64,000 nt of DNA from an uncultured Clostridia bacterium. GTDB lineage: Bacteria; Bacillota; Clostridia; TANB77; SIG350. A program made the position numbers and the translations under genes. Each line of letters starts with the position of its first letter. Within the stretch, counting starts at the first letter, position 1. The notes below the pieces were generated by a model. It searched no databases, had not been told where the DNA came from, and worked only from the letters and a program-made list of their open reading frames with translations. Below are positions 33,426-52,752 of the stretch, piece after piece. The stretch covers positions 16,661 through 80,660 of the forward strand of contig CALYAQ010000011.1 of the NCBI GenBank assembly GCA_944393615.1, given 5' to 3'.

Positions 33426-33965
33426 TTATATTGTTGCAAAATATGTACCAGCATTTCTTTTTGCTAAATCTATAGCTTGTACCTCTTCTGTTGATAATGT
33501 ATATGTTGAACTTCCTTTATTTACAGGTTTTGCATATGTTGCTGAACCTTCTCTTGAATAAATACCATTTATAACAACTCCAGAGTCTTCATAATCTAAT
33601 AAAGCTATTGCAAAACACAAATCGCTACCAGTATCTTCAAAAGCATTATATCTAACCATACCTACTTTTTGTATGCATTTAACTATTTTTTCATCTAATC
33701 TATTACAATAATCTAATACTTCCGTATTTTTTTTATCTACTTTTTCAACAGTTTCTATATAACCTCTTATCATAGTTTCTAAATTTGTACCATTTCCTAG
33801 TTTTCTCATTAGAGAATTATATTTCTTTATTGTTTTTTTTGTTTTAATATTATTAGCTATTGCCATAATAGTTACTAAAATAATTAGTATAAATACTATT
33901 ACATTAAAATATTCTTGGTTTGTTATATTAACAATTCCCATATATAAATTATTTAAAAACTCCAT
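33426..33965 (-). CDS. DUF4446-like membrane protein commonly found downstream of parB
   Basis: N-terminal TM helix. 179 aa. Lies directly after parB. Confidence 0.5.
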   Translation of the reverse strand: MEFLNNLYMGIVNITNQEYFNVIVFILIILVTIMAIANNIKTKKTIKKYNSLMRKLGNGTNLETMIRGYIETVEKVDKKNTEVLDYCNRLDEKIVKCIQKVGMVRYNAFEDTGSDLCFAIALLDYEDSGVVINGIYSREGSATYAKPVNKGSSTYTLSTEEVQAIDLAKRNAGTYFATI

Positions 33966-33967
33966 TT

Positions 33968-34858
33968 TTACCCCCTATTTATAATATCTAATATTCTATC
34001 TAATTCGTCGTTAGAATAATATTCAACTATTATTTTTCCTCTATTTGAATTATTATGTTTTATTTGTACTTTAGTTTGAAAGAAATTTTTAAATTTTTCT
34101 TCAACATCATTTATCCATATATCATTTTCTTTTTCTTTTTTAATTTTTTTATTATTTGTTTTTTCTTCTTTTAACGATTTTATATTTTCTTCTAGTTGCC
34201 TAACACTTAAACCTTCTATAACAACTTTTTGTGCTAATAAGTTTTGTAATTCTGGGTTTTGTATAGATACAAGTATTTTACAGTGTCCTTCAGTTAATTC
34301 ATCATTTTTTATATATTCTTTTATTTTATCATCTAAATTTAGAATTCTCAATGAATTAGCGATAGAGCTTCTACTTTTTCCCAAATTACTTGCCAATTGT
34401 TCTTGAGTTAAATTATATTTATCCATAATATATTTATATGCTTGTGCTTGTTCTAATGTATTTAAATCTTCTCTTTGTATATTTTCAATTAAAGATATTT
34501 CACTTTTCGTTTGCTCGTCATATTCTTTTACTACAACTGGAACATTTTGCAAACCTATTGATTTAGCTGCTCTTAATCTTCTTTCTCCTGCAATTAAATC
34601 ATAATTGTCATTATTTTTTGTTACAACCAACGGTTGCACTATACCATATTTTTTTATAGATTGTGCCAATTCATCTAATTGCTCTTGTCCAAACACTTTT
34701 CTAGGCTGTTCCTCATTTGTTTTTATGTCATTTACATTTAAAAAAACTATTTCATTGTTATTTATTTTTGTCTCTAGTTGTACTGTTTTTTCAACAACAT
34801 TTTTTGCTGAAGGTTGGAATAGTGCATCTAATCCTCTTCCTAATCCCATTTTAGCCAT
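33968..34858 (-). CDS. parB: ParB/Spo0J chromosome partitioning protein
   Basis: 'GLGRGLDALF', 'LIAGERRLRAAK' ParB box, and an HTH region 'QEQLASNLGKSRSSIANSLR'. Confidence 0.9.
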   Translation of the reverse strand: MAKMGLGRGLDALFQPSAKNVVEKTVQLETKINNNEIVFLNVNDIKTNEEQPRKVFGQEQLDELAQSIKKYGIVQPLVVTKNNDNYDLIAGERRLRAAKSIGLQNVPVVVKEYDEQTKSEISLIENIQREDLNTLEQAQAYKYIMDKYNLTQEQLASNLGKSRSSIANSLRILNLDDKIKEYIKNDELTEGHCKILVSIQNPELQNLLAQKVVIEGLSVRQLEENIKSLKEEKTNNKKIKKEKENDIWINDVEEKFKNFFQTKVQIKHNNSNRGKIIVEYYSNDELDRILDIINRG

Positions 34859-35628
34859 TATCTTTTCACCTCGTTATTTCTTATTATTTCATTTGCCAAA
34901 CTAGTATAACACACTGCACCTTTGGATCTTTTATCATATAAAGATATTGGTAATCCATGACTTGGTGCTTCACTTAATCTAACGTTTCTAGGTATAATTG
35001 TTGTATAAACTTTTGTATTAAAATACCTTTTTACTTCTTCCACAACTTGCATTGATAAATTAGTTCTAGAATCATACATCGTTAGTACAACTCCTTCTAT
35101 ATCTAAGTTTTTATTTAAATGTTTTTGTACTAAATCAATTGTACTCATTAATTGTCCTAATCCTTCTAATGCATAATATTCACATTGTATTGGAACTAAA
35201 ACTGAATCAGCTGCTGTAAATGCATTTAACGTTATTAGCCCTAAAGAAGGAGGGCAATCTAATATTATATAATCGTAATCATATCTTATTTTTTCTATTG
35301 CCATTTTTAATCTGTTTTCTCTTGATATTACAGATACCAATTCAACTTCTGCTCCTGCTAAATTTATATTAGAAGGACAAACTTCTAAATTAGGTAAATC
35401 TGTAGCTTGTAGGGTATCTTCTATATCTTCATTATTTATAATTACATCATATACCGATTTGGGTACTTGTTTATTTGCTCCTAAACCACTTGTAGCATTT
35501 CCCTGTGGATCTATATCTATAATTAAAGTCTTTTTTCCTGCTTGAGCTAGGCAAGCACTTAAATTTACTGCTGTTGTTGTTTTTCCAACTCCGCCTTTTT
35601 GATTTGCAATTGCAATAATCTTACTCAT
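34858..35628 (-). CDS. parA: ParA/Soj ATPase
   Basis: Deviant Walker A 'ANQKGGVGKTTTAVNLSA'. 256 aa. Overlaps the parB start. Confidence 0.9.
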   Translation of the reverse strand: MSKIIAIANQKGGVGKTTTAVNLSACLAQAGKKTLIIDIDPQGNATSGLGANKQVPKSVYDVIINNEDIEDTLQATDLPNLEVCPSNINLAGAEVELVSVISRENRLKMAIEKIRYDYDYIILDCPPSLGLITLNAFTAADSVLVPIQCEYYALEGLGQLMSTIDLVQKHLNKNLDIEGVVLTMYDSRTNLSMQVVEEVKRYFNTKVYTTIIPRNVRLSEAPSHGLPISLYDKRSKGAVCYTSLANEIIRNNEVKR

Positions 35629-35854
35629 ATTTCCCTCCTATTGTTACTTTTATTTCTACTTTTTGTTACACAAATATATTATCATAAAACTATTATTAAT
35701 TAAATAGTTTTTATAAAAAAATGTGTTTTTTTATAAAATTCTTTTTTCCGTAAGATATAGTATTTTTGTTTTATGTAAACTTATTCTTTTTTGTATACAT
35801 AATATTAAAACTAATTAAGTATTGATAACAAACCGATTCTATATTTTTTATTAA

Positions 35855-36068
35855 TGTTCCACGTGGAACATTTCTTTTTTTAATTATTTGTTTTCTATTT
35901 AATTATTTCTTTATTATTAATTAATTATCTAATTATTTTCTTATTTTTATTTTTGTTCCACGTGGAACATTTCTTTTTTTATTTATTTATTTTCCAATTA
36001 ATTATTTCTTTATTATTAATTAATTATCTAATTATCTTCTTATTTTTATTTTTGTTCCACGTGGAACA
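35855..36068. repeat. Tandem ~99-bp AT-rich direct repeat (2.5 units), each unit carrying the perfect palindrome TGTTCCACGTGGAACA (parS-like). Copies at 35855, 35954 and 36053.
   Basis: Three exact 16-mers spaced exactly 99 bp apart, with near-identical intervening sequence. Located between the parA start and the rsmG stop. Confidence 0.85.
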
Positions 36069-36071
36069 TTT

Positions 36072-36782
36072 CTATTTTAATGGTTTTTCGCTAGGTGTAC
36101 CTGCTTTTCTAGGATATTTGCTTGGCGTTGTTTTTACTTTTCTAATTATTACTAAATTATATTCTATTTCTATACTTGGTAATTTATATTTAATTATTTC
36201 TTCTATTTTACCTCCTAGTATATCTATTGCTGATTTACTTTCTTCTATTTCTTCTAATACATTAGGTCCCTTCATACAAATGATAATACCATTTTTTTTA
36301 ACAAATGGTATTAGATATTCTACTAAAGTTCCCATATTAGCTACAGCTCTTGATATAGCTATATCAAATTTCTCTCTATACTCTTTATTTTGTCCAAAAT
36401 CTTCTGCCCTACCATGAATTATATTTATCTTTTTTAATTCTAACTTTTTTGCAATATCATTTAAATATACTAGTTTTTTATTAATGCTATCTAATAATGT
36501 CATTTCACAATTTTCAAAGAATATTTTTATAGGTATACCTGGAAAGCCTGCACCAGTTCCCACATCTATTATTTTTGAATTTTCTTTTATATATTTGCAT
36601 GGTAATAATGAATCTATAAAATGTTTTATATATATATCTTTATCATCTGTTATTCTTGTTAAATTAATTTTTTTATTCCATTCTATTAATTCTAATTTAA
36701 CTTCTTCAAATTGTTTTAATTGTTTATTATTTAATTCTATATTAACATCTTTCAATAAATTATTAAAATAATTATTTTCCAT
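36072..36782 (-). CDS. rsmG: 16S rRNA (guanine527-N7)-methyltransferase RsmG (GidB)
   Basis: SAM-binding '[11 protein letters not shown]'. 236 aa. Overlaps the mnmG end. Confidence 0.9.
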
Positions 36783-38673
36783 TGCTTTTTCTCCCTCTTA
36801 ATTGCTCTAAATATATTAATAGCACAGATATATCAGCTGGTGAAACTCCTGATATTCTAGATGCTTGACCTAAATTTAATGGTTTGAATTTATTTAATTT
36901 TTGCCTAGCTTCTAAACTTATACCTTTTATTTCTTCATAATTTATATCTATTGGTAATTGCTTTTTTTCTAAATTTCTAAATTTATTTACTTGTTCTTGT
37001 TGTATTTTTATATATCCCTCATATTTCACTTCTATTTCCACTTCTTCACATATACTTTTTTCAATATTAGGTCTATCTTCGTCTATCTCTTTTAATATTT
37101 CATAACTTAATTCTGTTCTTTTTAGTAATTCTGACAGCTTTATACCTGTTTCTAATTCTGAAGAATTGTATTTTCTTAAAAATGCTTGTACTTTTTCTGT
37201 TGGTTTTATATTTACTTTTTTAATTCTATTAATTTCTTTTTCTATTAATTCTTTTTTATTTATAAATTTTTGATATCTTTCTTTTGAAATAAGACCAATC
37301 TTATATCCTTTTTCAGTAAGCCTTATATCTGCATTATCTTGCCTTAATAATAATCTATATTCAGCTCTAGATGTCATCATTCTGTATGGCTCATTAGTTC
37401 CTTTTGTTACTAAATCGTCAATTAAAACACCTATATATGCCTCTGCTCTATCCAATACCAAAGGTTCTTCGTTTTTTATTTTTAAAGATGCATTTATTCC
37501 TGCCATTAACCCCTGTGCTGCTGCTTCTTCATATCCAGAACTACCATTTATTTGCCCTGCAAAATATAGCCCTGAAATTTTCTTATGCTCTAATGTTGGA
37601 TATAGCATTGTTGAGTCTATACAATCATATTCAATAGCATATGCTGGTCTCATTATTTCACAATTTTCCAATCCTGGTATAGATTTATATATTTCTAATT
37701 GCACTTCTTCCGGTAAACTAGATGACATACCTTGTATATACATTTCCTCCGTATTTTCACCCATAGGTTCTATAAATATTTGATGTCTTTCTTTATCTGC
37801 AAATCTCATGATTTTATCCTCTATAGAAGGACAATACCTTGGCCCTATACCTTCAATAACACCAGAATAAAGTGGTGATTTATGTATATTTTTTCTAATA
37901 ATTTCATGTGTTTTTGGTGTTGTATATGTTAAATAGCATGAATATTGTTCTTTTTTATATTCTTTATTTTCAAATGAAAACGGTATTATATTTTTATCTC
38001 CCTTTTGTTCTTCCATTTTTGAAAAATCAATACTTCTTTTATTAACTCTTGCTGGGGTACCTGTTTTAAATCTTCTTAACTCTACACCAATTTCTTTTAA
38101 AGATTGTGATAATTTATTTGCCGGAAATACACCGTCAGGTCCAGATTCATAATTAACATCTCCAATAAATATTTTACCTTTTAAATATGTACCTGTTGCT
38201 AATATTAAAGCTTTTGTTTCATATCTAGCACCTATTTGTGTAGTTACAGCTTTAATTTTATTATCTTCAACTTCTATCTCTACAATTTCTGCTTGTTTAA
38301 CATCTAAATTTTCTTGTAATTCTAATACATGTTTCATATCTTGATGATATTTTTTTCTATCAGCTTGTACTCTTAATGAAAAAACCGCCGGTCCTTTAGA
38401 TGTATTTAACATTCTAGATTGAAGTGTTGATTTATCAGCATTTTTCCCCATTTCTCCACCTAGTGCATCTATTTCTCTAACCAAATGACCTTTTGAAGTC
38501 CCTCCTATATTAGGATTACAAGGCATATTTGCTATACATTCTAAGCTTATAGAAAATATAACTGTCTTTAAACCCATTCTACTACATGCTAAAGCTGCTT
38601 CACATCCAGCATGTCCTGCTCCTATAATTGCTACATCATATTTTTTTCCATCGTATTTCATTTTTACCTCCAT
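36772..38673 (-). CDS. mnmG: tRNA uridine-5-carboxymethylaminomethyl modification enzyme MnmG (GidA)
   Basis: FAD-binding '[14 protein letters not shown]'. 633 aa. Confidence 0.95.
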
Positions 38674-38758
38674 TATTCCATATAGAACATTATATATTTT
38701 ACTCCTTTTTTAATTGTTTTACAATATTTATTGTTCATATTTCTTATTTTTATATTAT

Positions 38759-39232
38759 TGTTCCACGTGGAACATTTTGCTTTTTTTATTTTATTTATTA
38801 TTTTTCTATTTTTTTATTTAATCATTTTTTATTTATTAATTTGTTTATTTTCTGTTTTATATTATTGTTCCACGTGGAACATTTTACTTTTTTTATTTTA
38901 CTTATTATTTTTCTATTATTTTATTTAATCATTTTTTATTTATTAATTTGTTTATTTACTATTTTATATTATTGTTCCACGTGGAACATTTTGCTTTTTT
39001 TATTTTATTTATTATTTTTCTATTTTTTTATTTAATCATTTTTTATTTATTAATTTGTTTATTTACTGTTTTATATTATTGTTCCACGTGGAACATTTTA
39101 CTTTTTTATTTTATTTATTATTTTTCTATTTTTTATTTAATCATTTTTTATTTATTAATTTGTTTATTTACTATTTTATATTATTTATTTATTTTTTCTT
39201 GCTTGCTAATAAAAAATGTTCCACGTGGAACA
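38759..39232. repeat. Tandem ~107-bp AT-rich direct repeat (4 units + 1), each unit carrying the same palindrome TGTTCCACGTGGAACA. Copies at 38759, 38866, 38973, 39080 and 39217.
   Basis: Five exact 16-mers. The first four are spaced exactly 107 bp apart. Lies between the mnmG start and the mnmE stop. It generates the spurious 'LLFHVEHF'-containing ORFs in the track. Confidence 0.85.
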
Positions 39233-39236
39233 TTTT

Positions 39237-40604
39237 TTATTTTCCTAAACAAAACTTAGAAAATATCTTATTTATTACTTCTTCACTAACAGTTTTACCT
39301 GTAATCTCACCTAATAATTGTAATAAATCCATTATTTTGACAGAAACAATGTCAATTGGCGTTTTTTTGCTTACATCAAGGTTTATATCGTCTATTTTAT
39401 TTAAAGCTGTAGAAACTATGTTTTTGTGCCTCGAATTTGTTAAGAGTGTTTCATTTTCATTTATTATACTATCTAGATTGCACATTTCATATATTTCTTT
39501 TTCTAATTTTTCTAATCCTATATTTTCTTTTGCCGATATTTCTACAATCACTTTATTATCAAAAATCTGTTTTATTTCCTCTTTTTTTAATTTATTTTTT
39601 AAATCTATTTTATTCAATATTATTATTATATTATTGTTATTAACATTCTTAATTATATCATAATCATCTTGTGTGAAATCTTCTGAATAGTCAAAAGCAA
39701 CCAATACTATTTCCGCTGTTTTCGATATATCTATAGATTTTTCAATTCCAATTTTTTCCACTATGTTTTCACTTTTTCTTATGCCTGCTGTATCTATTAT
39801 TTTTACAGGTATTCCTTTTATATTAATGTATTCTTCTATTGTATCTCTTGTAGTTCCTGCAATATCTGTAACAATAGCTCTTTCTTCTCTTAATAACATA
39901 TTTAATATAGATGATTTTCCCACATTTGGTTTTCCAATAATAGCTATACTAATGCCTTCTCTCAATATTTTTCCTGCATCAAAACTCTTTTCTAGTTTTT
40001 GTAGTTTTTCTCTTATACTCTCTATACTATTAGTTAATTTTTGGTTTGATACTTCTTCCACATCATATTCAGGATAATCAATATTAGCCTCTATATCAGA
40101 TATTATATCTAATATTTCATTTTCTATTTCTTTTATTTTTTTAGATAAAACACCTTCTAATTGTTTTTGCGATTCCTTTAAACTCTTTTCTGTTTTTGAA
40201 TTTATAATATCTACAACAGCTTCAGCTTGTGTTAAATCAATTCTTCCATTTAAAAATGCTCTTTTAGTAAATTCTCCAGGTTCAGCTAATCTTGCACCGT
40301 TCTTTAGCACAATACTTAATATTTTATTTAATATAACAGTTCCACCATGGCAATTTATTTCACAAACATTTTCTCTTGTAAATGAAATTGGTTTTATAAA
40401 AAATGAAACTAAAACTTCATCTATTATTTCTTTATCATCTATAATATGTCCATAGCGTATTTTTTGATGTTCTATTTTAAAGCTTCCCTTTTTAGGTTTA
40501 AATATTTTTTCTATTATTTCAAAAGTTTTTTCTCCACTTATTCTTATAATTCCTACACTTGATATTGCTGATGATGTTACTATTGCTGCTATTGTATCTT
40601 CCAT
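39237..40604 (-). CDS. mnmE: tRNA modification GTPase MnmE (TrmE)
   Basis: G-domain motifs 'GKPNVGKSS' and 'DTAG', and a C-terminal 'CLGK' tail. Confidence 0.95.
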   Translation of the reverse strand: MEDTIAAIVTSSAISSVGIIRISGEKTFEIIEKIFKPKKGSFKIEHQKIRYGHIIDDKEIIDEVLVSFFIKPISFTRENVCEINCHGGTVILNKILSIVLKNGARLAEPGEFTKRAFLNGRIDLTQAEAVVDIINSKTEKSLKESQKQLEGVLSKKIKEIENEILDIISDIEANIDYPEYDVEEVSNQKLTNSIESIREKLQKLEKSFDAGKILREGISIAIIGKPNVGKSSILNMLLREERAIVTDIAGTTRDTIEEYINIKGIPVKIIDTAGIRKSENIVEKIGIEKSIDISKTAEIVLVAFDYSEDFTQDDYDIIKNVNNNNIIIILNKIDLKNKLKKEEIKQIFDNKVIVEISAKENIGLEKLEKEIYEMCNLDSIINENETLLTNSRHKNIVSTALNKIDDINLDVSKKTPIDIVSVKIMDLLQLLGEITGKTVSEEVINKIFSKFCLGK

Positions 40605-42954: not shown

Positions 42955-43446
42955 TTAAATATTGTTACTAATTTTTATAACGTATATTCTTTCAACAACT
43001 TTATCATTATTTTTTTCAATAATAATTTTATAATCATTATCGTCTATAATTTTAGTATATTCTGTACTATTAGTTATTCTAGCATTAGTCATCATTATAA
43101 TACTTGCATTTTCTTTAGTTGCATTTGTTTCTTCAATAGCATTCTCACTTATATATACTATAATATTAGTTAAATTTTGTGTACTAATATCTAATAACAT
43201 TTGTTTAAAAATAGAACCTTTTATTATACCTTCGTACTTATCTAAAATATTTTTTTCTATTTTTTCATCTGTATTATTATTTTCAACATTATCACTAGTA
43301 CCTGTTCCACTTATATATTGTGGATTTAAGTATATTATTTCGTTTTTTAATAAAATTATTAAACTTGCACTTATCAATGCTATCATAATAAATATCGTAA
43401 CAACAACAGATAGTACATTTCCTCTTTTTAAATTAATATACTCCAT
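42955..43446 (-). CDS. Hypothetical membrane-anchored protein (163 aa) between rpmH and oriC
   Basis: N-terminal TM helix. N/I/K-rich. No family recognised. Confidence 0.4.
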   Translation of the reverse strand: MEYINLKRGNVLSVVVTIFIMIALISASLIILLKNEIIYLNPQYISGTGTSDNVENNNTDEKIEKNILDKYEGIIKGSIFKQMLLDISTQNLTNIIVYISENAIEETNATKENASIIMMTNARITNSTEYTKIIDDNDYKIIIEKNNDKVVERIYVIKISNNI

Positions 43447-43571: not shown

Positions 43572-43769
43572 TTATCCACAGGTTTTTCAAAATTATGCAC
43601 ATAGTTTTCCACAGTTTTTTTTGTTTTTTTTAAAAAAGTCTTGATTATTTGATAGTATTTTGATATATTGTGTAATAGCTTATTTAGGGAAATAGGCTTT
43701 ACATAATAATAAGATAAAAAAATCACTCTAAATTTTATGGTGATTATAAAAATAAAAACATGTGGATAA
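43572..43769. promoter_or_regulatory. oriC upstream DnaA-box cluster: TTATCCACA (43572), TTATGCACA (43593), TTTTCCACA (43606) and TGTGGATAA (43761, immediately upstream of the dnaA RBS)
   Basis: Perfect and 1-mismatch matches to the DnaA box consensus TTATCCACA. Confidence 0.8.
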
Positions 43770-43779
43770 GGTGAATTTT

Positions 43780-45099
43780 ATGAAACAATTTGATGAAACT
43801 TGGGATAAAGTAATTGATATGATAAAAGAAGAAATACCTGTTATTAGTCTTGAAACATGGATTAAACCTTTAGTTTTGTTAGAAGTTACAGATACAAAAT
43901 TAATTTTTAAAGCTAGCACAGATTATCATAAAACATTAGTTGAAACTAGATATATTGACTTGATTAGAACAGCTTTAAAATATGTTACTTCTAAAGATTA
44001 CGATGTATCAATTATTTTAGACGACGAAACAAAAGAAGAAAATAATAAGATAATTGCAAATATGTATGGTTATTCAAGCACATTTTTAAATCCTAAATAC
44101 ACATTTGAAAATTTTGTTATAGGTAATAATTCTAGATTTGCTCATGCTGCTTGTATAGCTTCAGCAGAAGCACCTACAGCCGCATATAACCCATTATTCA
44201 TATATGGGGGAGTTGGTTTAGGAAAGACACATTTAATGCATGCTATTGGTAATTTCAGATTGAAAAATAACCCTAATACAAAAGTTCTATATGTTACATC
44301 CGAAAGATTTCTTAATGATTTAATTAACGCTATAAGCGAAAACAAAAACGAGGAATTTAGGTTAAAATATCGTAATATAGACCTTTTACTAATTGATGAT
44401 ATTCAATTTATTGCTAAAAAAGAAAGATTTCAAGAAGAATTTTTTAATACTTTTAACGCCCTATATGAACAAGGTAAACAAATAGTATTAACTAGTGATA
44501 GACCACCAAAAGATATTAATCCTTTGGAAGAAAGATTAAAATCAAGATTTGAATGGGGACTTATTGCGGATATTGGTATGCCAGATTACGAAACGCGTTT
44601 AGCAATTTTGAAAAAAAAGGTTCAAAATGATAAACTTGTAGTTGATGATAATATATTAGAACATATAGCATCTAAAATAGACACTAATATTAGGGAATTA
44701 GAGGGTACATTAAACAAAATTGTTGCTGAAGCATCCTTAACTAATAAACCAATTACTTTAGAAAGTGCATTAAGAGCAATTAGTCACATGTCATCTTCAA
44801 ACAATAAAACAATAACAGCCTCAACAATAAAAGAATGTGTTTCTAGCTATTTTGATATATCAGTTACAGATTTAACAAATCAAAGTAGAGTAGCTGCAAA
44901 CACTTTACCAAGGCAAATCGCAATGTACTTATGTAGAGATGTTATCCAAATGTCTTTTCCCAAAATTAGTGCTGAATTTGGCAGAAAAGATCACACCACA
45001 GCAATGCATGCTTACGAAAAAATTTCAGAAGCAATAAAAGGAAATGGTTCTTTAAAAGAAACTGTGGATAACATCAAAGAATTGTGGATAACTAAATAA
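43780..45099 (+). CDS. dnaA: Chromosomal replication initiator DnaA. Start at ATG 43780 ('MKQFDETW') with an AAGGTG RBS.
   Basis: AAA+ 'GGVGLGKTHLMHAIG', and a C-terminal DNA-binding 'TLPRQIAMYLCRDV..SFPKISAEFGRKDHTTAMHA'. Confidence 0.95.
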   Translation: MKQFDETWDKVIDMIKEEIPVISLETWIKPLVLLEVTDTKLIFKASTDYHKTLVETRYIDLIRTALKYVTSKDYDVSIILDDETKEENNKIIANMYGYSSTFLNPKYTFENFVIGNNSRFAHAACIASAEAPTAAYNPLFIYGGVGLGKTHLMHAIGNFRLKNNPNTKVLYVTSERFLNDLINAISENKNEEFRLKYRNIDLLLIDDIQFIAKKERFQEEFFNTFNALYEQGKQIVLTSDRPPKDINPLEERLKSRFEWGLIADIGMPDYETRLAILKKKVQNDKLVVDDNILEHIASKIDTNIRELEGTLNKIVAEASLTNKPITLESALRAISHMSSSNNKTITASTIKECVSSYFDISVTDLTNQSRVAANTLPRQIAMYLCRDVIQMSFPKISAEFGRKDHTTAMHAYEKISEAIKGNGSLKETVDNIKELWITK

Positions 45100-45200
45100 G
45101 TCTTGATTTCCGTAGTTTGAAGTGCATATTTTACATAAAAAAAAGTTATGGACAAAGTGTATTAAATATTCTAACCTTACTTACGGAATACTTTGATATA

Positions 45201-45357
45201 GTTATCAACAGGTTGTTGCGAGTTTACTGTGGATAACTTGTGGATAACTTTAAAAAATTTTCAAAAAAAAATTATACACATTTTATACACAGACTTATAC
45301 ACAGATTTATACACAAGATAAAGTTTAGTATTTACTAGGGAAAATAGGGTTTTCCAC
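45201..45357. promoter_or_regulatory. oriC downstream DnaA-box cluster: TTATCAACA; 2x TGTGGATAA (45227, 45238); 4x TTATACACA phased ~11-12 bp apart (45271, 45282, 45294, 45306); TTTTCCACA (45349). An A-rich candidate unwinding element lies at ~45247-45273.
   Basis: Read directly from the sequence. This is the bipartite arrangement flanking dnaA that is typical of Firmicutes oriC. Confidence 0.8.
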
Positions 45358-45416
45358 AGAATCCACAACACTTACTATTATTATTACTAAATAAATATAA
45401 ATATTTAAAAGGAGTT

Positions 45417-46540: not shown

Positions 46541-48472
<1,932 letters not shown>

Positions 48473-50362: not shown

Positions 50363-52752
50363 GTGGTGAAACAAATAAAAAATACACAAATTTTGTTTGA
50401 CATATTAGATATACAAAAAGGCATATTAATTTTAAAGAATAACTGTTTTGCAAGAATAATAAAAATACAACCTATTAATTTTAATTTAAAATCTGAACAT
50501 GAAAAAGACCTTGTAATAGACAGTTATAGGCAATTTTTAAAAGTTTGCAATTTTGATTTTCAAATTATTGTAAAAACAAGAAAAGAAAATACAAAATCAC
50601 ATGTAGATTATATTTGTAATAATAAAAATGCTCCTAAACACATTCAAAAACAATATTGTAATTATATTAATGAATTAAAAAACTCAAATTATATATTTCT
50701 TAAAAGTTTCTATTTGATTTATTCAATAAAACAAGATTATCTCAAAAATTTAATTAAAGTTGAGAAGGAGTTAAATTCAAAATATAGTTTAATAAAAGAG
50801 TGTTTAGAAAAATGCGGAAACGATGTTTATGATTTATCAGAATATAATGATGATAAACTGTGTGAACTTATATCAAATTTTATAAATGAAGGGGAAAGTT
50901 TGTATGAATTTTATTAAAAATTTATTAAAAAAGATTACAAGCAAAAAGCCATTGAATAACAATGATTATTGTTTTCAAAATAATATTATAGATAAATTAT
51001 CAAGTGATTCTATTATATATAGAACACATCGGTTACCTAGAAATTAATAATAAGTTCTTTTCTGGAGTAATTATTGTTGATTATCCAAGAATAATTGATA
51101 ATAAATTTATGGAAAATATAATTTATTTGGATATACCTTTTAATATATCAATGTTTTACGAACCTATAAATAAATACGAAGTAATAAAAAAATTAACATA
51201 TCACTTGGGTAATGTAAAAAGTGAAATTAAGACTAGTTCAAAAAATAAAGAAGATTATGAATATTTAAATATTACATATAATGATGCAATTGATATAAGA
51301 AAAGAATTGCAAATTAATAACGAAAATATATATAATTTTTACTTATACATTACAATATATGATAATGATTTACAAAGATTAAATCAAAATATTAACACTA
51401 TAAAATCATTACTTTATAGTTATGGAGTAATATCTAAAGTGCCTTATTTTAGACATATTAGCTTATATAAAGCGACAAATCCTTTTAATATAAATCCAGA
51501 AGAAATAAAGTTTGATACTAAAAGAAATATGATATCTAAAACATTAAGCTCATTCTATCCGTTTATATCGACTAATATTTATGATATAAAAGGTGTATTA
51601 TATGGGATTAACAACCAAAACAAATCACTAATCATAATTGATAGATTTGATAAGAAAAAATATATAAATTCAAATATGAGTATATTTGGAACAAGTGGTG
51701 CAGGAAAATCTTATTTTATAAAATTACAAATAATTAGAAATAGCCTTTTAGATATAAAACAACTTGTAATAGATCCAGAAGGTGAGTATATGAAAGTTTG
51801 TAATGAGGTAGGTGGAACGTATATTTCTTTAGGAGGAAAAAATAATTATCATATAAATATTTTTGATATATATAATGAATGTGATATTGAGTCTAATAAT
51901 AGTATTTTGGAAAACAAAATACAAAATTTAATGATATTTTTTTCAATGGTTTTACCTGAAATTAATAATATTGAAAAAGCATATTTGGAAGAAAAAATAA
52001 TAGAAATATATAAAGAAAAAGGCATAACATTTGACAATAAAACATTGTACAATTATTATGAAAATAATAAAATTTTATTAAGGCCTAATATAAAAAATAA
52101 TAAGCAATTTCCAATAATTCAAGATTTATACGATATAATTCTTAAAGATAATAAATATCCGGAAATGTTATACTTATTAAAACCTTTTATTAGTGGAAGA
52201 TTAAAGTATCTAAATAATCATACTAATTTTGATAGTAGCAATAAAATTTTAATAATAGATATATCTAATATTAAAGAAGAATTTATGGATATACATTTAT
52301 TTATCATAATAGAATTATTTTGGAATATTATAAAACAAGATACTAATTTAAAAAAGATTATTTATATAGATGAAATTTGGAGATTAATAGGTCAAAAAAG
52401 TAACTCTTTGAGTGCTAATTTTGTAGTGCAAATTTTTAAAACAATTAGGAAATATAATGGTGCAGCTACAGCAATAACACAAGATATATCAGATTTGATT
52501 ATTAATAAAAATATATATGGAAAAGCAATAATTAACAACTCTTATTTTAAATGTATTTTTAAAATGGATGAAGAAAATGTTAAAAATTTAAGTGAGTTAG
52601 TATTGTTATCAGAGAGTGAAAAAATAAAAATAAATAAAATAAAAAGAGGAGAATGTTTGCTAATGTTAAATAATAATAATTCTATATTAAATATATGCAG
52701 TTCCGAATATGAAAAGTCAATAATAGAACAAGGGGAGGGATGTGATGTATAA
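50363..52752 (+). pseudogene. VirB4/TrsE/TcpF-like type IV secretion ATPase broken by two frameshifts. Three frame segments: 50363-50917, 50903-51050 and 51004-52752.
   Basis: N-terminal 'IIKIQPINFNLKSEHEKDLV', then 'GVIIVDYPRII' (Gram-positive VirB4 signature), Walker A 'GTSGAGKS', 'VIDPEGEY' (CagE/TrbE/VirB motif) and Walker B 'IIYIDEIW'. The combined length is ~795 aa, typical for VirB4. Confidence 0.6.

Follow-up and report, generated by a model that had tools for sequence, protein, structure and literature searches.

Why would a bacterial chromosome carry eight exact copies of one 16-bp palindrome within 3.4 kb, right beside its partition genes? The question was raised by the first-pass annotation of the window (the whole 64-kb stretch of DNA analyzed here, which comes from a metagenome assembly), and it falls into three parts: what the palindrome is, how its copies arose, and whether such an arrangement is out of the ordinary.

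Eight exact copies of a canonical parS sequence occupy two spacers beside parAB

All eight palindromes were recovered as exact matches to TGTTCCACGTGGAACA, where 0.01 match would be expected in the 64-kb window on the basis of dinucleotide shuffles. Three lie in the rsmG-parA spacer, at 35855 to 35870 (copy 1, closest to parA), 35954 to 35969 (copy 2), and 36053 to 36068 (copy 3, 3 bp beyond the rsmG stop codon). The other five lie in the mnmE-mnmG spacer, at 38759 to 38774 (copy 4, closest to mnmG), 38866 to 38881 (copy 5), 38973 to 38988 (copy 6), 39080 to 39095 (copy 7), and 39217 to 39232 (copy 8, a solo site that begins 4 bp beyond the mnmE stop codon and is embedded in a longer A6...T6 palindrome). 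A scan for variants with one or two mismatches, which the annotation had proposed for the whole genome, found none in the 64-kb window, and GTTNCACGTGNAAC with one mismatch allowed gave no further sites there. Outside the two spacers, the window is free of parS sites. Within it, then, the sites are confined to the parAB locus, and since eight of eight copies lie in two adjacent spacers, a REP-like dispersed element was rejected.

The annotation had called the palindrome parS-like. In all eight copies the 16-mer fits the chromosomal parS pattern tGTTNCACGTGNAACa, and it equals, letter for letter, the experimentally bound parS2 and parS3 sites of Pseudomonas aeruginosa; by its sequence, it is canonical parS. 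The sequence in view is 64 kb, and other parS sites or a Noc paralogue may lie elsewhere in the genome; the string for a search for parS at genome scale, with up to two mismatches, is TGTTNCACGTGNAACA.

The sites adjoin a chromosomal partition operon near oriC

Gene calls agree with the earlier placement of parAB, rsmG, mnmG, and mnmE beside the sites. On the minus strand lie mnmE (39237 to 40604), mnmG (36772 to 38673), rsmG (36072 to 36782), parA/soj (34858 to 35628), parB (33968 to 34858), and, directly after parB, a DUF4446 gene (33426 to 33965; PF14584, 170 bits) that is kept in the operon in all relatives examined (synteny of loci L003 to L013). The parA stop codon overlaps the parB start codon at 34858. 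The ParA partition ATPase (256 amino acids [aa]) matches the ParA family, has the deviant Walker A motif KGGVGKT at residues 11 to 17, lacks an N-terminal HTH extension, and is predicted to be a standard chromosomal ParA. ParB (296 aa) is predicted to be a parS-binding CTPase clamp. It scores 183.6 bits against TIGR00180, has the Pfam domains ParB_N, HTH_ParB, and ParB_C, and contains the CTP-switch motif GERRLRA and the N-terminal motif GLGRGLDALF; the closest solved structures are those of Bacillus subtilis Spo0J (6sdk) and the Helicobacter pylori Spo0J/ParB homologue (4umk). Against the Noc model it remains below the cutoff (246 versus 315 bits). Its specificity positions (in GKSR, IANS, ILNL, and EGH) read R-S-N-G, which is the parS type; R173 and G201 are invariant in ParB, while Noc proteins have Q, K, K, and R (PMC7383237). 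No second ParB-family gene was found in the 64-kb window.

The context of the locus is chromosomal, with dnaA (43762 to 45099), dnaN, gyrB, and rpmH-side genes. DnaA boxes form two clusters: the left part of oriC, upstream of dnaA (43572 to 43769), has four TTATNCACA-type boxes, and the right part, which spans the 3' end of dnaA and part of the dnaA-dnaN spacer (45063 to 45358), has nine boxes and includes a 12-bp tandem repeat, TTATACACA, in four copies. The cumulative GC skew reaches its minimum at ~42 to 44 kb. The distance from the parS sites to the DnaA-box clusters is about 4.3 to 9.5 kb, and the claim that the sites are near oriC thus stands (about 4 to 9 kb in round figures).

Seven of the sites are carried on recently duplicated units of ~100 bp

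TRF delimited an array with a 99-bp period in the rsmG-parA spacer (array 1, 35845 to 36078; 2.4 copies, 94% matches) and one with a 107-bp period in the mnmE-mnmG spacer (array 2, 38748 to 39185; 4.1 copies, 96% matches). The former corresponds to the array of three copies that had been described between parA and rsmG. Of the five copies assigned earlier to the 107-bp array, four do belong to it, but the fifth (copy 8) stands alone, 137 bp from the fourth site of its group and with unrelated flanks that are 47 to 50% identical to the array units. In both arrays the units run head to tail with one parS site per unit. The full units of array 1 share 91% identity, and the first three units of array 2 are 95 to 98% identical in pairwise, ungapped comparisons; identities of 91 to 98% indicate that the duplication is recent. 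The unit of the third site of array 1 is truncated and abuts the rsmG stop codon. The palindrome is invariant in 8 of 8 copies, while the units of array 1 align only loosely with those of array 2, a contrast that points to selection on the palindrome.

The suggestion that the repeats might be intrinsically bent was not borne out. A wedge model put the two arrays at 6.5 and 8.6 degrees per turn, shuffled sequences at 9.8 to 9.9, and a phased A-tract control at 28.6, and the Fourier spectrum of AA/TT in the arrays had no peak at 10 to 11 bp. With curvature at or below that of the shuffles and no AA/TT peak, the arrays are not predicted to be bent. Rfam at gathering thresholds yielded only three tRNAs and one T-box in the window and nothing within the arrays. 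Promoter-like matches showed no excess (26 versus 31.1 in shuffles), and the long plus-strand open reading frames that span the arrays are by-products of the T-rich repeats. Sequence searches with the spacers returned matches at this locus and in conspecific contigs only, and a mobile-element origin of the arrays was rejected on these grounds. A scan of viral contigs for paired sites gave only 4 contigs and thus no reason to suspect that the arrays came from phages or plasmids.

Relatives carry parS sites at the corresponding gene ends

A scan of genome contigs with back-translated ParB patterns, which were too specific, recovered two loci only, and the loci of relatives were obtained from contigs encoding relatives of ParB. 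A search of related genomes, which the first-pass annotation had recommended, located sites at the two corresponding gene ends. In loci L009 to L011, whose ParB shows 66% identity, an exact parS site follows mnmE at 3 bp and another follows rsmG at 25 bp; L012 and L013 have a parS site with 1 mismatch in each of these places; and L001 has four parS sites in the region, two of them within the rsmG-parA spacer. Since relatives have single parS sites at the corresponding two gene ends, the arrays are, on comparison of these sequences, lineage-specific tandem amplifications of ancestral sites. Copy 3 is probably the ancestral site of the rsmG-parA spacer, because the single or first parS site of L009 to L011 and L001 comes right after rsmG; copy 8 is probably that of the mnmE-mnmG spacer, because it has an orthologous single site past mnmE in L009 to L011. 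Among closer relatives, L006 has a degenerate site, GTTCCACGTAGAAC, and L007 has no good parS site at these positions, which indicates that the positions are not indispensable.

Four other assemblies, made independently from the strain of the window (100% identity in parA DNA), have N-gaps or contig ends within the arrays, and the exact copy numbers (3 and 4 + 1) are therefore not secure. Read with the caution that short-read assemblies give unreliable array copy numbers, the rsmG-parA array reaches 4 or more copies in the conspecific loci L014 and L015 versus 3 in the window, and the mnmE-mnmG spacer has 3 sites in the conspecific locus L003 versus 5 in the window (two fewer units).

Dense parS clusters are not exceptional

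The annotation had assumed that genomes scatter a few parS sites over hundreds of kilobases and had therefore regarded eight sites in 3.4 kb as unusual. Clustering of parS sites is described as the rule, however, and scattering as a peculiarity of the Bacilli; several parS sites per 5-kb bin have been reported in gut Clostridia. With that premise gone, the claim of an unusual architecture fails as well. A search of metagenome contigs for at least three exact sites spaced 86 to 116 bp apart gave at least 120 contigs with sites at ~100-bp spacing; because the search pattern itself sets the spacing range, no preferred array period can be inferred from these matches. Among the matches listed, 34 contigs carry at least 8 sites, GC content ranges from 25 to 74%, up to 26 sites occur in 1.9 kb, and many arrays are placed between rsmG and parA in that order. 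At 124 listed loci (120 metagenome contigs and 4 viral contigs), the array has ParA beside it in 54 cases, ParB in 41, and RsmG in 33. The spacers are less than 60% identical in 45 of 110 listed arrays, with the palindromes perfectly kept.

The architecture is also present in an Acidobacteriota-like contig and in Butyrivibrio. In the cultured Clostridia isolate Butyrivibrio sp. AE2032, whose ParA exactly matches the ParA of locus L030, the gyrB-parA spacer holds TGTTCCACGTGGAACA five times without mismatch, in the ~450 bp that directly precede parA. Unlike in the window, the spacers between these sites are mutually unrelated (no recent tandem duplication), and parAB follow gyrB rather than rsmG. 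No specific account of tandem parS arrays in Clostridia was found in the literature searched.

Among studied systems, Myxococcus xanthus has a multicopy cluster near parAB in the origin region that is denser than the one described here: 22 of 24 parS sites lie in ~3 kb, ~4 kb upstream of parA, and are bound by ParB in vitro. Its sites are variable, with a consensus ending in G (TGTTCCACGTGGAACG), and form one cluster, whereas the window has two arrays in successive spacers; moreover, M. xanthus is a high-GC deltaproteobacterium. In Corynebacterium glutamicum, ten consensus sites (parS1 to parS10, nine of them intergenic) form a single 35-kb cluster, where ParB chromatin immunoprecipitation sequencing (ChIP-seq) peaks coincide with parS and SMC-dependent arm alignment starts; this cluster is ~10 times less dense than that in the window and lies 73 kb from oriC. 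P. aeruginosa has the identical palindrome in parS2 and parS3, the sites that ParB binds with the highest affinity, and its parS1 to parS4 cluster is, as here, origin proximal and near parAB, but there are only two perfect copies, not in tandem, and six dispersed degenerate sites. B. subtilis shares the gene neighborhood mnmE-mnmG-rsmG-soj-spo0J, and its parS-359 site within spo0J (TGTTCCACGTGAAACA) differs by one base from the 16-mer; its sites, in contrast, are single, some of them intragenic, and scattered over tens to hundreds of kilobases. B. subtilis also has noc between rsmG and soj, where the window has none.

The F-plasmid centromere sopC consists of 12 tandem repeats of 43 bp, each with a 16-bp SopB-binding palindrome. 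It resembles the arrays described here in being a head-to-tail array with one binding palindrome for a ParB-family protein per unit but belongs to a plasmid system of type Ia, with a different palindrome and a ParA that has an N-terminal DNA-binding domain, whereas the window has a chromosomal system, the universal parS, and a short ParA. A plasmid-type, sopC-like centromere was therefore rejected, given the chromosomal context, the ParA without an N-terminal HTH, and the universal chromosomal parS. The locus is best read as an ordinary origin-proximal ParB loading cluster of an already known kind of arrangement.

A predicted ParB loading region and its alternatives

We consider it very probable that the eight palindromes are chromosomal centromere (parS) sites, forming a predicted ParB loading region whose arrays arose by tandem duplication. 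The identification as parS rests on the canonical 16-mer, its position in spacers next to parAB, the nearby DnaA boxes, the motifs and specificity residues of ParB, and the sites of relatives. The ParB/SMC loading platform that had been proposed is best read in this way, as a predicted ParB loading region at which a role of SMC is inferred. Going by established ParABS biology, ParB dimers would bind each parS site, bind CTP, and close into sliding clamps, which would spread over the neighboring few kilobases, covering parAB-rsmG-mnmG-mnmE and reaching toward oriC. The result would be a single partition complex, moved by ParA and loading SMC-ScpAB; as no more than 3.4 kb holds all the sites, the starting points of SMC would in effect coincide. 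Close packing of several sites may increase the loading rate and make the complex more robust. As for their history, unequal recombination or replication slippage may have duplicated a ~100-bp unit holding the ancestral gene-end parS site, with the palindrome staying invariant while the spacers would drift and the copy number would fluctuate.

Formally, the sites could be parS and their amplification functionally neutral, with the unit copied when an AT-rich spacer underwent slippage or unequal crossing-over, a drifting copy number, and, in part, an assembly artifact; one or two sites would then serve equally well. We regard this as possible but lean against it. Relatives manage with one site per spacer, and P. 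aeruginosa and C. glutamicum can segregate their chromosomes with just a single parS site, so the gain from additional copies may be small; the recent duplication of units that are 91 to 98% identical, the species-specific spacers, the variation in copy number among contigs with 100% identical parA, and the breaks of assemblies inside the arrays are likewise consistent with neutrality. However, independently recurring multicopy arrays are present in at least 120 contigs that differ widely in GC content, and 45 of 110 listed arrays have kept perfect palindromes between diverged spacers, a pattern that speaks for selection to maintain multiplicity as such. Condensation in vitro also scales with site number: the ParB-dependent force grows with 7, 13, and 26 parS sites.

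A second alternative, that the palindromes mainly terminate transcription or act as insulators where the mnmE, mnmG-rsmG, and parAB units adjoin, with only a secondary resemblance to parS, seems to us improbable. Copy 8, after mnmE, would fold into an A6-palindrome-T6 RNA hairpin (−16.4 kcal/mol; z = −7.2), the sites that follow rsmG in L009 and L001 resemble it (−14.0 and −14.9 kcal/mol), and a scan gave nine terminator-like sites versus 0.6 expected, seven of the nine being parS copies. Those seven matches, however, are on the plus strand, whereas all genes of the region are encoded on the other one; when the seven array copies are read along the gene strand, A-runs come after them and the stem has only 6 bp (−7.1 kcal/mol). 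Termination also leaves unexplained the exact conservation of the 16-mer across phyla and its association with parAB. It is at most a second job of the gene-end copies; copy 8 is possibly the mnmE terminator hairpin as well.

The first-pass annotation had also envisaged that the arrays help to trap the origin in the forespore. In B. subtilis, origin capture is aided by Soj-Spo0J, the window has a yyaC match above the curated cutoff, and an M23 peptidase weakly resembles SpoIIQ (below the cutoff). A sporulation-specific device is nevertheless highly improbable: nothing in the sequence is specific to sporulation, spore-forming relatives of equal gene order have single sites, and the shared architecture of the Acidobacteriota-like lineage and Butyrivibrio, which are not known to form spores, makes this role unnecessary.

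Finally, a 16-bp perfect palindrome and an array upstream of the parAB promoter region would also suit an operator, either for a Noc-like protein or for an unrelated HTH regulator that acts as a dimer. This reading is very unlikely indeed, since such arrays occur together with parAB in dozens of unrelated lineages and across many diverse metagenome contigs, the 16-mer is identical to validated parS and differs from the Noc site consensus ATTTCCCGGGAAAT, and the only ParB-family protein of the window has the R-S-N-G residues and falls short of the Noc cutoff.

Significance of parS multiplicity

A broader and more tentative idea, which we consider rather unlikely, is that tandem, satellite-like parS arrays are a widespread, fast-evolving form of centromere, in which an ancestral gene-end parS site is repeatedly duplicated locally, the number of copies differs even between members of one strain population, and multiplicity is selected to tune ParB-clamp loading and condensate size. 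The literature searched contained no systematic survey of such arrays. If this idea were true, the window would be a clean and recent example (units 91 to 98% identical; 3 versus at least 4 copies). For ParABS biology as such, the locus matters little, being an expected centromere in the expected place. In practical terms, short-read assemblies fragment at the origin because of these arrays, a point relevant to the binning and closing of metagenome-assembled genomes. The predicted sites mark the segregation origin in a low-GC lineage of uncultured Clostridia and illustrate clearly how a centromere site in bacteria has been amplified via recent tandem duplication. Viewed alongside the metagenomic arrays, of which there are at least 120, they suggest that parS multiplicity is common and dynamic and that it may be used to study how the number of sites sets ParB loading and SMC entry.

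Identity of the palindrome and its partition proteins

Exact search of the window for TGTTCCACGTGGAACA returned the eight copies listed by the first-pass annotation (35855, 35954, 36053, 38759, 38866, 38973, 39080, and 39217), against a chance expectation of 0.01 in dinucleotide-preserving shuffles. Within the same 64 kb, there were no 1- or 2-mismatch variants of TGTTCCACGTGGAACA, and a looser search with GTTNCACGTGNAAC plus one mismatch found no further sites. On sequence grounds, the 16-mer is a canonical parS, more than merely parS-like. It is identical to parS2 and parS3 of P. aeruginosa, perfect palindromes that are best bound by ParB (PMC4368675), and is one base apart from the optimal B. 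subtilis site, TGTTCCACGTGAAACA (PMC8299390). The window's ParB (33968-34858, minus strand) fits the ParB model, scores under the Noc cutoff, and carries an N-terminal GLGRGLDALF peptide and a GERRLRA CTP-switch box; its closest solved structures are B. subtilis Spo0J (6sdk) and the H. pylori Spo0J/ParB homologue 4umk. In alignment, it has R-S-N-G at the four positions deciding between parS and NBS (Noc-binding site) specificity; ParB proteins invariably have R173 and G201, and the Noc residues are Q-K-K-R (PMC7383237). No second ParB-family gene lies within the 64-kb window. ParA (34858-35628, minus strand) has a deviant Walker A motif, KGGVGKT, and lacks an N-terminal extension. The 16-mer's identity, the parS-type ParB, the origin-proximal position, and conservation all support the centromere reading proposed at first pass.

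Ten isolated half-parS heptamers (GTTCCAC) were also seen outside the arrays (e.g., 1062, 7381, 8361, 40339, 43304, 47400, 48410, 50059, 51812, and 59043), with ~2 expected per whole window and a maximum of 6 in 100 shuffles lacking codon-bias control. P. aeruginosa ParB is reported to bind half-sites.

Gene neighborhood and origin

A DUF4446 gene (33426-33965), parB, parA, rsmG (36072-36782), mnmG (36772-38673), mnmE (39237-40604), and jag, yidC, and rnpA form one minus-strand stretch. On the plus strand, dnaA (43762-45099) is followed by dnaN and gyrB (46562-48472). DnaA-box clusters at 43572-43769 and 45063-45358 place the parS sites 4 to 9 kb from oriC, and the cumulative GC skew minimum falls at ~42 to 44 kb. 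GC content is ~25%, and the genes include a yyaC spore-protease gene. Proteins from uncultured-metagenome contigs match the ParB at 100% identity; among its named relatives, Clostridia/Clostridiales MAGs are nearest.

Several other features were noted. The dnaA-dnaN spacer (45272-45315) holds four DnaA boxes (TTATACACA) as a tandem repeat of 12-bp period. A 163-aa ORF (42955-43446, minus strand), between the rpmH side and dnaA and adjoining the left DnaA-box cluster, had no match in Pfam or NCBIfam; ORFs of 160 to 164 aa occupy the equivalent position in the related contigs L003, L007, L009, and L012. Between gyrB and gyrA (57411-59873), a block of ~21% GC (50363-56225, plus strand) carries an inserted Tad/Flp-pilus-like gene set, comprising a HerA/TraG-like ATPase, a CpaE/ParA-like ATPase (26% identical to ParA), a T2SSE ATPase, and a T2SSF protein. 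Upstream of parA, a conserved TTCC(C)TACGGAAAA-like motif (35743-35760; ~2888-2903 in L006 and ~9104-9122 in L007, both from relatives) could represent an operator or a parS that has decayed. A conserved extended -10-like element, TGnTAATAT, is found ~45 nt ahead of parA both in the window and in its relatives.

Origin of the arrays

Tandem Repeats Finder delimited a 99-bp-period array in the rsmG-parA spacer (35845-36078; 2.4 copies, 94%) and a 107-bp-period array in the mnmE-mnmG spacer (38748-39185; 4.1 copies, 96%). The first holds three sites, as annotated at first pass; the fifth site assigned to the second (39217) in fact lies outside it, 137 bp from the seventh site and with unrelated flanks. 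This solo copy starts 4 bp past the mnmE stop codon, and the third parS lies 3 bp past that of rsmG. Outside the palindrome, units of one array still align with those of the other better than do 499 of 500 shuffles. The spacer sequences were absent elsewhere in the window and from all retrieved loci except conspecific contigs. These results indicate local duplication and not a mobile element.

We searched fetched contigs encoding ParB relatives for parS. L009 to L013 (ParB identity, 65 to 66%) share the window's gene order and carry one site 3 bp past mnmE and one ~25 bp past rsmG, exact in L009 to L011 and with one mismatch in L012 and L013. Four sites occur in L001 (59%), two of which lie within the rsmG-parA spacer; in L006 (83%), the equivalent positions hold variant sites, GTTCCACGTAGAAC; and L007 (72%) retains only a degenerate remnant. 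The ancestral state was thus probably one parS after each of mnmE and rsmG, both of which were amplified into tandem arrays in the window's species.

Copy number was compared with four other assemblies of the strain (parA DNA 100% identical). L003 has two fewer 107-bp units, whereas the rsmG-parA array reaches at least four copies in L014 and L015 versus three in the window. Runs of N fall within arrays in L003 (8850-8949) and L014 (~1637-1736), and the contigs of L015 and L004 start inside a parS. The differences are either real polymorphism or assembler collapse, and the window's copy numbers are not secure. Such gaps and ends, recurring in independent assemblies of one strain, mark the arrays as an assembly breakpoint in the MAG origin region.

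Alternative readings

The parS copies could instead be transcription terminators, and a terminator scan flagged seven of them. However, the flagged matches are antisense; read on the gene strand, the array copies fold into a 6-bp stem of -7.1 kcal/mol with A-runs after it. The solo copy past mnmE is stronger (-16.4 kcal/mol, with A6/T6 flanks); in folding predictions, resemblance to bidirectional terminators is limited to this copy and the sites following rsmG in L009 and L001. Post-stop-codon parS sites sit inside longer A-run/T-run palindromes of -14 to -16 kcal/mol in the window (39211-39238), L009 (9083-9112), and L001 (8955-8986), and these copies may double as centromere site and terminator. 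An Rfam search gave no matches within the arrays. The suggested forespore trapping is unneeded as an explanation, since some array carriers are not known to form spores. The suggested intrinsic bending was not predicted for the arrays. A scan of viral contigs found a pair of sites in only four, giving no hint that the arrays come from a phage or plasmid.

Prevalence and proposed function

The first-pass view of this density as unusual was not borne out. M. xanthus has 22 of its 24 parS sites in a 3-kb cluster ~4 kb upstream of parA (PMC3899335; PMC3778016), C. glutamicum has ten across 35 kb (PMC7083940), and gut Clostridia have several in 5-kb bins (PMC10197239). A preprint treats clustered sites as the usual case and scattered ones as peculiar to Bacilli. 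At least 120 metagenome contigs matched a scan for three exact sites at 86- to 116-bp spacing, and at least 34 carry 8 or more. Among the matches listed, GC spans 25 to 74% and arrays have up to 26 sites in 1.9 kb (L028), with 22 sites in L036. In tblastn searches with the window's proteins against 124 loci (120 listed metagenome matches and 4 viral contigs), ParA lay beside the array in 54, ParB in 41, RsmG in 33, and MnmG in 16; many listed loci have the order rsmG-[array]-parA-parB. Because 36 arrays reach a locus end, these counts are lower bounds. By exact or 90%-cluster ParA match, carriers fall in Clostridiales MAGs, an Acidobacteriota MAG cluster, and the cultured isolate Butyrivibrio sp. 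AE2032, where ~450 bp upstream of parA hold five exact sites. Among 110 listed arrays, spacers are at least 80% identical in 28, recent tandem duplications of the window's kind, and under 60% identical in 45, old arrays in which the palindromes alone were kept. The window's parS cluster is an ordinary origin-proximal one.

Many listed arrays (L034, L036, L063, L066, L083, L095, L100, L101, L119, and L120) have short regular periods (38 or 43 to 48 bp), reminiscent of the 43-bp sopC repeat of the F plasmid; L095 has 14 sites at exactly 38 bp. The search pattern biases spacings, so no period preference can be claimed. A subset of the arrays (L048, 8113-8924; L102, 5062-6418; L118, 5218-6368; L079, 3187-4012; GC, 35 to 50%) neighbors a TSP3-repeat gene instead of parAB, and in L048 and L102 the opposite flank holds a DHH/DHHA1 gene; these arrays appear to represent a distinct conserved centromere locus of another lineage.

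Site identity, cognate proteins, position, and conservation were observed directly; from established ParABS biology (including PMC8299390 and a preprint), we infer how the cluster would act. ParB dimers would nucleate at every parS, take up CTP, close as clamps, and slide across adjacent kilobases, giving a single partition complex over parAB-rsmG-mnmG-mnmE that would be moved by ParA and load SMC. More sites would mean more ParB loading, as expected from in vitro condensation force growing with 7, 13, and 26 sites (PMC8299390). Packing within 3.4 kb would let SMC enter at effectively one point and so avoid the collisions discussed for scattered sites (preprint). One parS is enough in P. aeruginosa (PMC4368675) and C. 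glutamicum (PMC7083940), so by analogy extra copies may be only mildly beneficial, or neutral. The modest interest of the cluster is that ancestral parS sites at gene ends have recently been amplified in tandem, a process that, from the metagenome scan, appears common across bacteria.
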